Assembly: GCA_035701185.1 (NCBI GenBank) | Contig: DASSNX010000169.1 | Span: 1,138 to 65,137 of the forward strand | Reading direction: 5' to 3' | Length of the DNA: 64,000 nucleotides | From: Candidatus Limnocylindria bacterium | Lineage (GTDB): Bacteria; Chloroflexota; Limnocylindria; QHBO01 | Shown: positions 12,977 through 32,283 of the stretch, one piece after another | Numbering within the stretch: the stretch's first letter is position 1 | How the letters are laid out: every line of letters begins with the position of its first letter | Program-made: the position numbers and the translations under genes | Notes under the pieces: generated by a model | The model's input: the letters and a program-made list of their open reading frames with translations, nothing else | Databases searched by the model: none | Told to the model about the DNA's origin: nothing

Positions 12977-13007
12977 AGGATGCCCGCGTCGGCGACGCGC
13001 CGACATC
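12977..13007 (+). terminator. GC-rich hairpin downstream of the LOG gene (possible terminator without a U-tract)
   Basis: GGATG-cccgc-GTCGGCG-acg-CGCCGAC-ATCC inverted repeat. Confidence 0.3.
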
Positions 13008-13377
13008 CGCTCAGAGCAAACCCGTCGCGAGGCGGGGACGCAACGCCACGGACCTCTTCCGGGCAATCGGGGGTAGGCCGCCGGGCTGCCGGATCTTCGA
13101 TCCAGGCGATGGGACGGCCACGTTGCCCACACCGACCATCGGTTTGAGTTGACCCTCCCAGTCGCATGACGCGCACCCATTGGTGCTGGGCGCCAATGGG
13201 CACAAAAGGCGATCGGACGCGCCGCTAGGAGGGAGGTGGCCCGAACAACTGTCCGAGCACGTCACTTCCTGCAGCACGTCCGATCGTGCGACGCGTGACC
13301 GTACTTGGGAGTCCGTCCACGACGTCGATCGCATCGTACTGCAGGCTCCTGTTGCCCATTCCATCGGAGCTTGAGCA

Positions 13378-24960: not shown

Positions 24961-25643
24961 CGTCGCGGCTCGCCCACCGCGCCGCCGCACTCGGCGGGGT
25001 GATCCTGCTCACGGCCTGCGGCGCACCGGCCGCCACGCCGCCGCCCTGCCCGACCGCTGCTCCCACCGCGGACCAGGCGAACGACATCCTGGCCGATGCC
25101 AGCGCGATCGACGTCAAGACCAACAAGGGCAGCTTCACCATTGAGCTGCAGCCCGACTCGGCTCCGATCGCGACCGCCAACTTCGTGGCGCTGGCACGCT
25201 GCGGCTTCTACACCAACGTCAGCTTCCACCGGGTGATCGCCGGCTTCGTGGCCCAGGCCGGCGACCCGCAGACACGCGACAACCACGCCGACTTCGCCGG
25301 CGTGGGCACGGGCGGCCCCGGCTACCACTTCAAGGTCGAGCTGCCACCGGACGGCACCACCTACCGCAAGTACGCGGTGGCGATGGCCAACGCGATGCAG
25401 TACGACCCGCAGACCGGCGAGATCCAGGGTGGGACCGATACGAACGGCAGCCAGTTCTTCGTCATGCTGGCCGACTTCCCGCGGCTGCCGCCCTACTACA
25501 GCGTGCTCGGCAGCGTGACCAGCGGCACGGAGAACATCGACGCCATCGGCCAGCTCCCGACCACCGGGGATCCGACCAACGTGCCGGTGGATCCGGCCAT
25601 CATCGAGTCGATGACGGTGCAGGGGGCGCCGGCGCCGAGCTGA
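24957..25643 (+). CDS. Peptidyl-prolyl cis-trans isomerase, cyclophilin type, lipoprotein
   Basis: Lipobox LLTACG; cyclophilin core (FHRVIAGFVAQAGDP...GSQFFV); ATGA overlap with the upstream gene. Confidence 0.85.
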   Translation: MTSRLAHRAAALGGVILLTACGAPAATPPPCPTAAPTADQANDILADASAIDVKTNKGSFTIELQPDSAPIATANFVALARCGFYTNVSFHRVIAGFVAQAGDPQTRDNHADFAGVGTGGPGYHFKVELPPDGTTYRKYAVAMANAMQYDPQTGEIQGGTDTNGSQFFVMLADFPRLPPYYSVLGSVTSGTENIDAIGQLPTTGDPTNVPVDPAIIESMTVQGAPAPS

Positions 25644-25683
25644 TTTCCGCTTTGAAATGTGAAGGATTCTTAGTCCCGAACCC

Positions 25684-25713
25684 TTGACCTTTTGGGGCCC
25701 GATTGGGTACTCT
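25684..25713 (+). promoter_or_regulatory. Sigma-70-like promoter (TTGACC-18-TACTCT) for the sRNA candidate
   Basis: -35 and -10 hexamers with 18-nt spacing in an otherwise noncoding, lower-GC stretch. Confidence 0.4.
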
Positions 25714-25719
25714 GTGTTC

Positions 25720-25867
25720 GCTGTTCGTACAGCGATTCACCACTGATCGCAAGGTCATGGGTAGGTTTGGGTAAGGGTAGTGCGGGAAACCGCGCGTGAA
25801 AGATGCCCTTGCGGTTAGCGAATCCGGCAGCACCTGAAGGCCCCTCCTCGGAGGGGCCTTCTGCTAT
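25720..25867 (+). ncRNA. Candidate small RNA (~150 nt) bounded by promoter and intrinsic-terminator-like hairpin
   Basis: No ORF; ends in the hairpin GAAGGCCCCTCC-tcg-GAGGGGCCTTC followed by TGCTAT; lies between the PPIase gene and tRNA-Arg. Confidence 0.4.
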
Positions 25868-26040
25868 CCGGCGGACCGCCGCGACTACAGCTGGAGGTGC
25901 GGTACGCGCACCAGGGAAGCGTTGCGGACCTTTGGGTCGGACGTGCCACGCTCCCGCGCTCGCATCCACCCTCAACGCGGAGCTGTCAGAGGCCGGCAGG
26001 AACTCACGGACCGACTTAACGCTGTGGCCATGCGCATCCG

Positions 26041-26085
26041 GTGCTTCCCGGCAAGAACCGGGGTGCTTCCGGGCAAGAACGGGGG
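26041..26085. repeat. Two tandem ~22-bp repeats, each a small hairpin (CCCGG-caagaa-CCGGG)
   Basis: gtgcttcccggcaagaaccgggg / gtgcttccgggcaagaacggggg. Confidence 0.4.
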
Positions 26086-26095
26086 CCGCGGGGCA

Positions 26096-26125
26096 AAGAA
26101 AAAGGGCCCCTCGCGAGAGGGGCCC
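26096..26125 (-). terminator. Rho-independent terminator of the small peptide gene
   Basis: On the minus strand GGGCCCCTC-tcgc-GAGGGGCCC followed by TTTTTCTT. Confidence 0.55.
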
Positions 26126-26150
26126 CGGTACGTTGCCTTGCTGACTGCTC

Positions 26151-26225
26151 CTACAGGTTGCCCGTCAGCAGCAGGATCAGCAGGATCAGCAGGATCAGTC
26201 CAATGATCCCTCCACCCCAGTACAT
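26151..26225 (-). CDS. 24-aa hydrophobic peptide (type I toxin-like/small membrane peptide)
   Basis: MYWGGGIIGLILLILLILLLTGNL preceded by GAGGAGG 6 nt upstream of ATG and followed by a terminator; 9-bp x3 tandem repeat encodes the LIL repeats. Confidence 0.5.
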   Translation of the reverse strand: MYWGGGIIGLILLILLILLLTGNL

Positions 26226-26381
26226 GACGTTCCTCCTCGTTAGAGCGTTCTGCCCCGGGTAGATGCACCTCGCGTGCCAACCCGCGTCATCAGCGCCATC
26301 GGCCTCGTCTGGAAATTCCGCCGCCGCGAGCACCCGCGACTGAGCGACGATGCCAAGGGTCGGGTACGCTAGGGCTCCCGC

Positions 26382-26457
26382 GCGCCGGTAGCTCAGTGGA
26401 TAGAGCGTCGGCCTCCGGAGCCGAAGGTCGCAGGTTCGAATCCTGTCCGGCGCGCCA
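26382..26457 (+). tRNA. tRNA-Arg (anticodon CCG)
   Basis: GCGCCGG-TA-GCTCAGTGGATAGAGC-G-TCGGC CTCCGGA GCCGA-AGGTC-GCAGGTTCGAATCCTGT-CCGGCGC-G-CCA. Confidence 0.9.
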
Positions 26458-26462
26458 GTTCC

Positions 26463-26846
26463 CTAGAAGTGCTCCTCGTCCGGATCGTGGCGCTCGTCGC
26501 CACCGAGGATCGTTTCCGCGCCTGCCGGTCGCTCCGCTGGCGGCACGGCCCGCTCCTCCATCCGGTACGCCGGGTCGTCTGCGCTGAGCCCGGTGCCCGA
26601 GCCGTAGCCACCCGACCGCGTCGACTGCGGCTTGTCGTCGCTGACCGGCTCCGGTCCGGCCGCTCCGGCGGGGCCGCCGACACCGTGCTCGGCCGCCTGC
26701 CGATGCAGCTCACCGGTCACCTGCCGCGCCCCGTCGGGATCGCTGATCTCTCGTGTCTCGGCCGGGACGAACTCGTCGCCCGGGTCCGAGGGAGTGAGGC
26801 TGCCGGTGGCCCCGGTCAGCCCACCCTGCTCTCGGTCTTCTCGCAT
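26463..26846 (-). CDS. Hypothetical acidic, predicted-disordered protein
   Basis: 127-aa ORF with a GGGAGG SD before ATG 26846; D/E/G-rich. Confidence 0.45.
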   Translation of the reverse strand: MREDREQGGLTGATGSLTPSDPGDEFVPAETREISDPDGARQVTGELHRQAAEHGVGGPAGAAGPEPVSDDKPQSTRSGGYGSGTGLSADDPAYRMEERAVPPAERPAGAETILGGDERHDPDEEHF

Positions 26847-27458: not shown

Positions 27459-27626
27459 ATGCCAGCCGGCAGCAGCAAGAAGCGAGAGCGCCAGTACGAG
27501 CACATCAAGGAGTCGTACAAGGATCGCGGCGTGAGCACCGATGAGGCCGAGGAGCGCGCCGCGCGCACCGTGAACAAGGAGCGCCGCGAGCACGGCGAGG
27601 CCAACGGATCGAAGAAGAAGTCCTGA
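27459..27626 (+). CDS. Small hydrophilic basic protein (55 aa), hypothetical
   Basis: MPAGSSKKRERQYEHIKESYKDRGVSTDEAEERAARTVNKERREHGEANGSKKKS; GGGAG upstream. Confidence 0.4.
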   Translation: MPAGSSKKRERQYEHIKESYKDRGVSTDEAEERAARTVNKERREHGEANGSKKKS

Positions 27627-28679: not shown

Positions 28680-29623
28680 CCGGGTGGCGCGAAGATCCGC
28701 AGGGCAGCCGGCTGGACGGCGAACACCACTGGAGTGATGCCGATGGGCTCGCCGTCGGCGTGGGCCGGCAGCGCGCGACGGCGGCCGACGACCGTTACCC
28801 GCCTGGCGGAGAGGCGCTTGACGCGCGGCTCGCGCCGCGGCCGGTTGCGCGCCACCGCCAGGTAGTGACGCAGGACGTCCAGGGTCGTCATCCCGGAGAA
28901 GACGACGAGGTCGAGCTCGCCGTCGGCGGGATCGGCCTCCGGCGCCAGGGCGAAGCCGAACCCGTAGTACGGCCCGTTGCAGGCGGTGACCGCCGGCGCG
29001 CCGGTCCGCAGCCGCCGCCCGTCGACCGTCAACAGCATCCCGGTTCGGCGCCGGCGCAATGCTCGCCACGCCGCCCGCACCGCGCGCCACGCGCCATAGC
29101 GGTCGCCGACGGCCACGGCGCCGAAGCCGGCCGCATCCAGGCCCACGCCGGCGGCCTCGAAGAAGGCGGCCGCGTTCGCGGGCGGCCGCTCGTCGTCATC
29201 CGCGCCGGAGGCGTGCCACGCCACGCCCGCGTCGACCAACCGCGGGGCGCCGGTGGCGATGATCCGCAGGGCGTCCGGCTCCTCGCGGGGCAGGCCCCAG
29301 CCGGTGGCGATGTTGTTCCACGACCCGCGCGGCACGACGCCGAGCGTCGCGTCGCTGCCCACCAGCGCCGCGGCCACGGGCCGGACGGTGCCGTCCCCAC
29401 CGGCCACTGCCACGTCCCACTCCTTGGCGATGGCCTCGGCGGCCAGGGCAGCGGCGTCGTCGTCCTCGGCCAGGACGTGGAGCTGGACGCGCAGGCCGTG
29501 GCCCGTCAGCTGCTGCTGCATCTCCTCCGGCTCGAGCGGCGGATGGTCGGTTGCCGGCGAGGCGGGCTTGCCGCCGGAGACCGGGTTCACGAGCAGCAGC
29601 AGGGGCCGCCGGCCGTCACTCAT
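28622..29623 (-). CDS. Diacylglycerol kinase catalytic-domain family lipid kinase (YegS/BmrU-like)
   Basis: LLLLVNPVSGG...VAVAGGDGTV motif; ATG at 29623 overlaps the upstream gene's stop (ATGAGTGA). Confidence 0.75.
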   Translation of the reverse strand: MSDGRRPLLLLVNPVSGGKPASPATDHPPLEPEEMQQQLTGHGLRVQLHVLAEDDDAAALAAEAIAKEWDVAVAGGDGTVRPVAAALVGSDATLGVVPRGSWNNIATGWGLPREEPDALRIIATGAPRLVDAGVAWHASGADDDERPPANAAAFFEAAGVGLDAAGFGAVAVGDRYGAWRAVRAAWRALRRRRTGMLLTVDGRRLRTGAPAVTACNGPYYGFGFALAPEADPADGELDLVVFSGMTTLDVLRHYLAVARNRPRREPRVKRLSARRVTVVGRRRALPAHADGEPIGITPVVFAVQPAALRIFAPPGQAPGSPVAAAASAPKTRA

Positions 29624-31382: not shown

Positions 31383-31617
31383 CCGCCGGAGTGTATCGGA
31401 GCCCACTGCGGCCGTCCGGTAAGCCGCCGGTAACGGCCCGATGAGGCGTCGGCCTGATGCTGCGTGGACGATGCCCGGCGGGTCGCTGCAGGGCACGCCG
31501 CGCTGGCGGCCGGCTGGCAACCGGATCCGCCCGTCAAGGAGGCGACCCGCACGGGCGCCATGCCCCGGTGGCATACTTCGTGCACCGATTTCTGCCCGAC
31601 TCAACGAGGAGGACGAC

Positions 31618-32283
31618 ATGGCCGATGAGGTGCCGACTCGGGTCCGCTCGATGGTCGAGAGGGTGCTCGAGGCAGACGTGACGGACCAGATTGCGAAGCG
31701 TGGCCAGGAGCTGGCCAGAGCCGTCGGCCAGGCGACCGAATCGGTCTCTCAGCGTGCCGAAGAGGCGTGGCAGGACTCCGCGCCGCAGCGCCGTGAGGCG
31801 GAGAAGGCGGCACGCCGCGCGAGCCGCGACGCGATCAAGTGGGGCCGCCGCACCTGGCAGCGTGACCTGCGACCGAACCTCCGCGACCTGTGGAGCCGAC
31901 GCGCGACGGCGCTGGCAGCGGCCGGTGCCGCGGTGCCGGCCGGCCGCGAGCTGGTGGACGACGCCGCGGTGCGACTGGGCATCCGCAAGCGCCGCGAGCA
32001 GCGCCACTGGATGGCCTTCTTCATCGGTCTCCTGATCGGCGCCGCGGTCGGTGCGGTGGTGGCGATCCTGACCACGCCGAAGCCCGGCCGCGAGATGCGC
32101 GACGAGCTGGCCGGTCGCGCCCGCGACGCCGCGGACAAGGCCCGTGAAGCGGCCGGTGCCAGCGACTGGGTGCCGCTCTTCCAGCGCCCCGACGGCAACG
32201 GCGCGGCCGAGGGCATGCCCGAGGGCGAGCCGAGCAGCGCCGCCGATACCGCTGCCCCGGATGAGGCCGAGCAGCCGAACTGA
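31618..32283 (+). CDS. YtxH-like membrane-anchored protein
   Basis: WMAFFIGLLIGAAVGAVVAILTTPKPGREMRDEL matches the YtxH motif; GAGGAGG SD before ATG 31618. Confidence 0.55.
   Translation: MADEVPTRVRSMVERVLEADVTDQIAKRGQELARAVGQATESVSQRAEEAWQDSAPQRREAEKAARRASRDAIKWGRRTWQRDLRPNLRDLWSRRATALAAAGAAVPAGRELVDDAAVRLGIRKRREQRHWMAFFIGLLIGAAVGAVVAILTTPKPGREMRDELAGRARDAADKAREAAGASDWVPLFQRPDGNGAAEGMPEGEPSSAADTAAPDEAEQPN

Follow-up and report, generated by a model that had tools for sequence, protein, structure and literature searches.

A 24-codon gene for a one-helix DUF3309-type membrane peptide, probably under sigma-54-type control, in Candidatus Limnocylindria

In a stretch of 64,000 nucleotides (nt) of Candidatus Limnocylindria DNA (contig DASSNX010000169.1; the whole stretch is called the window below), we analyzed a 24-codon open reading frame (ORF) on the minus strand at positions 26151-26225. 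Comparison across genomes makes it highly probable that this ORF is a real gene for a one-helix membrane peptide of the DUF3309 type, and a -24/-12 element upstream of it makes sigma-54-type control of the gene likely; the composite of the two, a real one-helix DUF3309-type membrane peptide gene under sigma-54-type control, is the reading that we moderately favor. What is new here is the sigma-54-type element of the peptide gene and a separable, highly conserved small RNA (sRNA) encoded nearby.

The 24-codon gene, its conservation and its database entries

The features of the peptide gene are as follows.

26151-26225, minus strand: peptide coding sequence including the stop codon, 24 codons MYWGGGIIGLILLILLILLLTGNL, with ATG at 26225-26223 and TAG at 26153-26151 (read directly)
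26232-26238, minus strand: Shine-Dalgarno (SD) sequence GAGGAGG, with the 6-nt spacer AACGTC to the ATG (read directly)
26264-26279, minus strand: putative sigma-54-type -24/-12 element TGGCACGCGAGGTGCA, with GG and GC 10 nt apart, 54 nt upstream of the ATG
26093-26126, minus strand: intrinsic terminator, hairpin GGGGCCCCTC-TCGC-GAGGGGCCC(T), then TTTTCTTTG
26169-26198: 9-bp tandem repeat CAGCAGGAT, 3.3 copies with 100% match, inside the coding sequence and encoding (LIL)x3
26382-26457, plus strand: tRNA-Arg(CCG), on the opposite strand to the peptide gene and divergent from it

This layout agrees with what a first-pass annotation had described, i.e., GAGGAGG on the minus strand (26238-26232 by our reading) 6 nt ahead of the ATG at 26225, a hydrophobic ORF of 24 codons that runs from 26225 to 26151 and ends in TAG, LIL repeats encoded by a 9-bp tandem repeat (x3 in that description, x3.3 here), a GC hairpin and T-tract about 25 nt past the stop (24 nt by our count), and a stand-alone unit, with its own SD and terminator, adjoining a tRNA. 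The terminator stem (26126-26103) consists of 10 GC-rich base pairs, and only two terminator-like sites were found within 25500-26700, the second of which is nested in the same hairpin. The next gene downstream encodes a PPIase on the plus strand and is convergent with the peptide gene. The peptide of 24 amino acids (aa) has no charged residue and consists of an aromatic and Gly-rich N-terminus, one hydrophobic transmembrane helix of ~17 residues with I or L every three residues, and an invariant TGNL end.

The combination of an SD and a start codon is by itself no proof of a gene, since GGAGG-N4-9-ATG occurs 15 times in the window versus 15.7 times expected from shuffles, i.e., at the chance level for GC-rich DNA; it is the conservation of the peptide across genomes that validates the ORF. 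Folding of the putative mRNA gave z = -2.7, a value that is dominated by the terminator, was obtained with an arbitrary 5' end and carries nothing on sequestration of the SD.

When residues 5-24 were back-translated into a pattern and one genome of each GTDB species was searched with it, 67 loci matched. The one-helix gene, encoding 24-26 aa, was present in 27 of these species-level loci, 25 of which are labelled Chloroflexota or Ca. Limnocylindria, and the peptide was also found on many metagenome contigs; a search for similar peptides in relatives, which the first-pass annotation had proposed as a check, thus gave a positive result. The other two one-helix loci, L034 and L061, bear the Limnocylindria-type sRNA described below and probably belong to the same lineage or are mis-binned. 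Both L061 (DASRYM010000039.1, labelled Candidatus Zixiibacteriota) and L034 ('uncultured bacterium') carry the peptide gene, the sRNA and the sigma-54-type element, which is strict in L061 and a one-off variant in L034, and this suggests that they are Chloroflexota contigs that were mis-binned or left unclassified. The peptide gene is specific to Chloroflexota, mainly Ca. Limnocylindria.

The DNA of 23 loci comprised nine alleles with ORF identities of 75-97%, and the flanks of these loci (45 nt 5' of the SD and 60 nt 3' of the stop) were ~25% identical, i.e., random. When all loci were pooled, 37 distinct DNA alleles were obtained, 17 of which encode exactly the peptide of the window. Variable sites among the 37 alleles were distributed over codon positions 1, 2 and 3 as 12, 3 and 23, and the ratio of nonsynonymous to synonymous polymorphism (pN/pS) was 0.17 in the peptide frame versus 0.35-3.5 in the remaining five frames, a ratio that is biased low because the retrieval patterns had fixed some second codon positions. 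The many synonymous alleles and the sharp loss of similarity at both ends of the ORF are independent of this bias. Furthermore, the non-Leu residues Y2, GGG and TGN are invariant, and in one clade the start codon at this position is GTG. The ORF is thus conserved as a protein, and conservation of the nucleotide sequence alone, which the first-pass annotation had named as evidence against a gene, is not what the alleles show.

The signals around the ORF are conserved in the same manner. An SD (GGAGG, GAGGAG or AGGAG) lies 5-9 nt before the ATG or GTG in 27 of 27 species-level loci, in otherwise unrelated surroundings, and a hairpin of -20 kcal/mol or below follows within ~70 nt of the stop in 21 of the 27. 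In the close relative L001, the terminator stem is preserved by compensatory changes (GGGGGCCCCT-CCCC-AGGGGCCCCC). The neighboring downstream gene is convergent in most loci, which makes the peptide unit monocistronic. Three paralogues occur in one metagenome-assembled genome, MGR_bin359 (L025, L046 and L056). The unit under purifying selection is the ORF that starts at the SD-preceded ATG, and it is carried by a cassette of ~250 nt that moves and duplicates, being present or absent between the conserved sRNA gene and tRNA-Arg.

The gene had been described as unannotated, which proved to be wrong: NCBI lists the ORF as a protein of 60 aa read from a GTG (HET7583185.1, 'DUF3309 family protein [Candidatus Limnocylindria bacterium]'), whose start is over-extended, and the exact 24-aa peptide has already been called on 18 JGI contigs. 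Homologues of 24 aa are also named 'DUF3309 family protein' by NCBI. With the 40 C-terminal residues of the long ORF as query, 81 small database proteins of 24-70 aa were recovered, and when these were right-aligned, the final 24 residues were nearly invariant and the called upstream extensions were unrelated in both sequence and length. The residues that precede the Met (RRNV, EEVA, KEDA, EGDR) are GGAGG translated in differing frames, and the called extensions read through the SD and the -24/-12 promoter of the peptide gene. The called products of the peptide gene (window 26151-26333, minus strand; database proteins P0002-P0085) accordingly differ in length, from 24 to 70 aa, and their N-termini are unrelated. 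In population variants that are nearly identical, a 1-nt indel shifts the start of the long ORF (60 vs 68 aa) and leaves the ATG-start peptide unaffected. Because the true ORF of 75 nt is shorter than the usual length limits of gene callers, it receives an arbitrary N-terminal extension. As judged from these alignments, the 24-codon ORF is a real coding gene and its database versions are mis-started.

Relationship to DUF3309 and the -24/-12 element

In a Pfam scan, the peptide matched DUF3309 (PF11752) with 21.6 bits versus a gathering cut-off of 22.3, over profile positions 28-50 only, and close variants of the peptide scored 22.4 and 21.2 bits; an NCBIfam scan of the peptide returned only a noise match. 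The same back-translated scan that found the one-helix genes also gave 41 two-helix matches of 50-60 aa with a second helix ending ...GGGLLGLVLIILLILWLTGNL, from Acidobacteriota, Alphaproteobacteria, Salinibacter/Salinivenus, Phycisphaerales and Gemmatimonadaceae. These two-helix proteins are bona fide members of PF11752, with 36-76 bits across the full profile, and one example reads M..LILIIVLVLLLGGGGAYYGxRAGWGGPHYGGGLLGLVLIILLILWLTGNLGGGPMMR. Alignment by eye placed MYIGGGIVGL...WLTGNLG of the one-helix form against HYGGGLLGL...WLTGNLG of the two-helix proteins. The two forms share the C-terminal helix motif G-x-x-G-L-[ILV]n-L-L-T/G-G-N/R-L/I, the peptide is identical to the second helix of acidobacterial members at 15 of 20 positions over GGxxGL...LTGNL, and the two-helix members are likewise stand-alone small genes. 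The peptide differs from them in having one helix and 24-26 aa instead of 50-60 aa, without the first helix and the loop rich in Tyr, Trp and Arg, in that the sequence 5' of its Met is non-coding and holds the promoter and SD, and in being confined to Chloroflexota with a sigma-54-type promoter, which none of 37 two-helix relatives has. It follows from this comparison that the peptide corresponds to helix two of DUF3309, produced on its own.

Two further observations concern the family. Tandem or nearby paralogues of two-helix DUF3309 genes occur in several Acidobacteriota (L043:4917-5522, PMZR01000063, CAVXSP010000001 and CAWDRS010000024). On a metagenome contig (Ga0210087_1003838, L098:2968-3230), a longer ORF ending ...VIGLQYGFTSMGFLLVGFLLILLILLLTGNL takes the place of the peptide gene, in convergent orientation with the sRNA, and may represent another N-terminal architecture on the same helix.

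WHARCI, WHAGCI or LARQVH recurred in the mis-called extensions, a hint that a DNA word upstream of the gene is conserved. With one flanking nucleotide on each side, this element is TTGGCACGCGAGGTGCAT (26280-26263, minus strand) and matches YTGGCACG-N4-TTGCW, and it is the sole exact match to TGGCAC-N6-TGCW in the 64-kb window. Among 43 distinct upstream regions of orthologues and paralogues, 33 contain TGG[CT]A[CT]-N5-NTGC[AT] at -52 to -75 from the start codon, versus a background of 0.004 per 110 nt. Positions that the motif leaves unconstrained also fit the sigma-54 consensus, with Y before and G after TGGCAC and W then T after TGC (31 distinct sites), and in a sequence logo the information falls to noise on either side of the element. 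As a negative control, the element was sought within 150 nt of the two-helix relatives and was found in 0 of 37. A LexA-type reading of a conserved 'AGAACGC' box was also considered and dropped, as no conserved second half-site was found.

The only other strict match in the window lies in front of another membrane-protein gene.

31569-31584, plus strand: second putative sigma-54-type element TGGCATACTTCGTGCA

Its layout matches that of the peptide gene, i.e., the element, ~33 nt, GAGGAGG, 6 nt and an ATG at 31618, and the gene behind it (31618-32283, plus strand) encodes a 221-aa YtxH-domain membrane protein. The sequence TGGCATACTTC[GC]TGCA is kept at -49 ahead of YtxH orthologues with 64-73% identity in three other lineages. 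The JGI label 'gas vesicle protein' on YtxH-domain proteins looks like an annotation artefact. Sigma-54 promoters in general place the start of transcription at a set distance from the element, and on that knowledge sigma-54-dependent transcription of the peptide gene would start near 26253 and give a 5' untranslated region of ~28 nt.

Several observations weigh against the composite reading of a DUF3309-type gene under sigma-54-type control. On the side of the family assignment, the Pfam score of the window peptide (21.6) sits just under the cut-off (22.3), BLASTP of the peptide against a two-helix relative produced no alignment, and the pN/pS ratio carries the low bias stated above; the literature mentions DUF3309 only twice and incidentally, without linking the family to any function, and clustering of neighboring genes, which is noisy in GC-rich loci, revealed no recurrent gene partner even with the two-helix relatives included. 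On the side of the promoter, the strict motif is missing from 10 of the 43 upstream regions, three of which hold one-off variants. Monoderm phyla seldom have sigma-54. Searches of the window and of the sampled Limnocylindria loci, which make up a small fraction of a genome, gave no RpoN-box, GAFTGA or related signature, and signatures of RpoN or enhancer-binding proteins had matches in acidobacterial loci only. Since neither rpoN nor an activator was found and sigma-54 is rare in monoderms, the element could be the site of another factor, and an inverted repeat within it, GCAC-N5-GTGC, makes another DNA-binding protein a possible reader. In addition, no conserved upstream activator block was found 5' of the element in 11 tRNA-anchored spacers (96-376 nt), and in the extreme case the tRNA follows after a spacer of only 96 nt. 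Sigma-54 is present in some Chloroflexi (Francke et al. 2011, PMC3162934), and beyond that study the literature on sigma factors of Limnocylindria, or on sigma-54 together with small membrane proteins, offered nothing usable.

The neighboring sRNA and other features of the window

The peptide gene is convergent with a gene for an sRNA, the features of which are listed here together with a repeat that lies between the two genes.

25648-25678, plus strand: conserved box upstream of the sRNA
25684-25689, plus strand: -35 sequence TTGACC of the sRNA, a conserved hexamer
25708-25713, plus strand: -10 sequence TAnnAT of the sRNA (TACTCT in the window), with a 17-18-nt spacer to the -35 that varies freely between species
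~25716-25869, plus strand: sRNA of ~150 nt, almost invariant
25836-25861, plus strand: terminator hairpin GAAGGCCCCTC-CUCG/UUCG-GAGGGGCCTTC at the 3' end of the sRNA
26040-26085: 22-nt tandem repeat, 2.1 copies, downstream of the terminator of the peptide gene

Across 56 distinct copies, taken from Limnocylindria genomes and from metagenomes of soil, about 135 nt of the sRNA hardly vary. These 135 nt hold a stretch rich in G, GGGUAGGUUUGGGUAAGGGUAG, and the hairpin GYRCGGGAAACCGYGC, in which one pair shows compensatory change; variation in the sRNA is too low for covariation analysis. No Rfam family matched the sRNA; a permissive Rfam scan of 25600-26480 gave only sub-threshold matches on the two terminator hairpins, among them istR (21.5 vs 45 bits) and STnc100, which were rejected as noise. 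The usual place of the sRNA gene is immediately 5' of tRNA-Arg(CCG), and many relatives have only 20-40 nt between the stop of the peptide gene and the sRNA hairpin. The window has ~290 nt between the two genes, and there the peptide gene ends at a terminator of its own. The segment of ~225 nt between the two terminators (25870-26095) occurs only in close relatives of the window and holds the 22-nt repeat, which is polymorphic and dispensable.

The first-pass annotation had named a nearby sRNA candidate as a possible RNA partner of the peptide gene and had proposed a search for an antisense or adjacent sRNA with complementarity to its SD region. The sRNA itself proved to be real and highly conserved, but its role as a partner did not hold up. 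In an independent metagenome scan with the sRNA core, 44 loci were found, 37 of which had at least 300 nt of room, and the peptide gene stood beside the sRNA in 9 of these 37 (11 counting two short loci) and was absent from 28. The sRNA directly abuts tRNA-Arg(CCG) in 16 of the 28 loci that lack the peptide gene, and paralogues of the peptide occur in unrelated contexts without the sRNA. Predicted duplexes between the sRNA and the peptide mRNA were whole-length pseudo-duplexes and no better than those of shuffles (z from -2.6 to +1.4). The two conserved RNA genes are thus separated by a peptide cassette that is polymorphic for insertion or deletion, and this cassette is not one half of a module of RNA and peptide.

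Elsewhere in the window, a c-di-GMP-I riboswitch aptamer lies at 13005-13093 on the plus strand (Rfam 51.6 bits vs a gathering score of 35). ARAGORN called an 88-nt tRNA-Gly(CCC) at 29327-29414 on the minus strand, which is a false positive, as Rfam found nothing at E<=1 and the sequence is part of a diacylglycerol-kinase-type coding sequence (...GDGTVRPVAAALVGSDATLGVVPRGSWNNIATG). Two conserved proteins without a Pfam family, an acidic low-complexity protein of 127 aa (26463-26846, minus strand) and a Lys/Glu-rich protein of 54 aa (27462-27626, plus strand), flank a gene of the SRPBCC (polyketide-cyclase) fold. Together with the YtxH gene, these genes may lend the region a 'small stress protein' flavor.

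Proposed function and alternatives

Under the composite reading, the peptide gene would be silent until an enhancer-binding activator fires at the sigma-54-dependent promoter, and the message would then be translated efficiently from its short, unstructured leader. The peptide would insert with its MYWGGG end in the cytoplasm and its TGNL end outside, an orientation that follows, by the positive-inside rule, from the Arg-containing loop before the homologous helix in the two-helix relatives. By the most economical mechanism it would self-associate, two copies being equivalent to one DUF3309 unit, and it would act in the membrane in a conditional programme, probably of envelope or water stress, alongside proteins such as the YtxH-domain one. 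We offer such a conditional function in membrane or envelope stress only tentatively; it is suggested because the only other promoter of this kind in the window drives the YtxH-domain membrane protein. A bolder version, which we regard as rather doubtful, gives a class of (probably monoderm) soil Chloroflexota a sigma-54-dependent membrane-stress regulon with the peptide and the YtxH-domain protein as effectors. This regulon would be a functional analogue of the enterobacterial phage-shock response, and its smallest member, by an equally doubtful part of the same proposal, would be a charge-free helix of 24 residues that arose by halving of a DUF3309 protein.

The comparison with known small membrane proteins bears on this proposal. 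PspB, PspC, PspD and PspG are small membrane proteins of the enterobacterial phage-shock response under sigma-54 and PspF. The peptide resembles them in being a small membrane protein behind a putative -24/-12 promoter, so that it would likewise be made only on activation, and in seeming to be co-regulated, by promoter type, with a membrane stress-type protein that has a YtxH domain. It differs in having no sequence similarity to the Psp proteins, in that no PspA or PspF was identified, and in its host, a (probably monoderm) member of the Chloroflexota. Pmp3/YqaE (UPF0057) proteins are stress-induced proteolipids with an ill-defined role in 'membrane modulation'. They share with the peptide a very small size, extreme hydrophobicity, stand-alone genes and conservation, but they have two helices and belong to a different family, and no homology to the peptide was detected in the Pfam scan.

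Most characterized single-pass microproteins of bacteria act as accessory subunits or regulators. The peptide might therefore modulate a specific larger membrane protein, such as a transporter, sensor kinase or respiratory complex, as KdpF, AcrZ, MgtS and CydX do, and the fact that the entire helix is extremely conserved, with GGG and TGNL at its ends, points to a specific packing interface. Self-association accounts for the same conservation, however, and the gene was never found in an operon with a candidate partner, its neighbors being variable and usually on the other strand; the two-helix relatives also stand alone without a recurrent neighbor. We consider an accessory role, the main alternative, fairly unlikely.

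The first-pass annotation had called the gene 'type I toxin-like' and had likened its product to type I toxins or small membrane regulatory peptides. The second half of this description stands, in that the product is best described as a small membrane peptide, but the toxin half is not supported, since neither similarity to a toxin family nor a conserved antisense element was found. A type I toxin would be a membrane-damaging peptide curbed by an antisense or partly complementary sRNA, either the convergent sRNA or an undetected antisense RNA. Its size, single hydrophobic helix, monocistronic intergenic unit and multiple copies per genome are shared by the peptide with Ibs/Ldr/Fst-type toxins. 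The gene also sits in a compact intergenic cassette that is patchily present and may have several paralogues in one genome (three in MGR_bin359), and a tightly gated promoter would be apt for a toxin. Moreover, in many relatives the stop of the peptide gene lies only 20-40 nt from the terminator hairpin of the convergent sRNA, which thereby shares the terminator, a layout that recalls fst/RNAII or txpA/RatA. Against this, a Pfam search at E<=10, with models that include Ldr, Hok, Fst, TisB and Ibs, gave only DUF3309 and a noise match, and the peptide is homologous to half of a widespread, vertically conserved two-helix protein of a family that is not toxin-like. It has no sequence relationship to the known toxins, no dedicated RNA antitoxin and no charged or polar tail, and its predicted leader of ~28 nt is short, whereas type I toxin mRNAs have long, folded leaders. 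The convergent sRNA is a poor antitoxin candidate, as it lacks the peptide gene in 28 of 37 loci, is itself lacking beside the peptide gene in many contexts, forms duplexes with the peptide mRNA only at the level of shuffles and, in the window, lies ~290 nt away from a gene with its own terminator. An antisense RNA might be made from a non-conserved promoter, but the flanks share only the promoter, SD and hairpin, so there is no conserved antisense promoter. The tandem hairpin repeats that had been proposed as another RNA partner (the 22-nt repeat at 26040-26085) are absent from the close relatives L001 and L004. A type I toxin is, in our view, very unlikely.

It is scarcely credible that the ORF is not a gene, i.e., that it arose by chance in intergenic, GC-rich DNA or encodes the Leu/Ile-rich leader peptide of an attenuator: the chance frequency of SD and ATG in the window, a length below that of most callers with arbitrary extension, and a superficially attenuator-like Leu/Ile-rich mini-ORF followed by a terminator are outweighed by codon-level conservation in dozens of unrelated contexts and by the invariance of Y2, GGG and TGN, which are not Leu, and the attenuator was dismissed because there is nothing downstream to attenuate, with no same-strand structural gene and with the next gene convergent in most loci as well as in the window (PPIase, plus strand).

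The finding of a DUF3309-type peptide gene is modest in that it concerns a real, already catalogued microprotein gene of an uncharacterized family and not a new toxin system. It provides a clean case of a 24-codon gene that automatic callers systematically mis-started and whose true product was fixed by comparative analysis. The existence of DUF3309 in a one-helix form means that the conserved unit of the family is a single GGG-helix-TGNL segment, presumably acting as an oligomer, and narrows the ways in which the family may work. Finally, conserved -24/-12 elements stand before two genes for membrane proteins and suggest that Limnocylindria, a lineage without any described regulon of the sigma-54 type, may possess one; if true, this regulon would place the orphan DUF3309 family in a regulatory context for the first time and provide a minimal model peptide.

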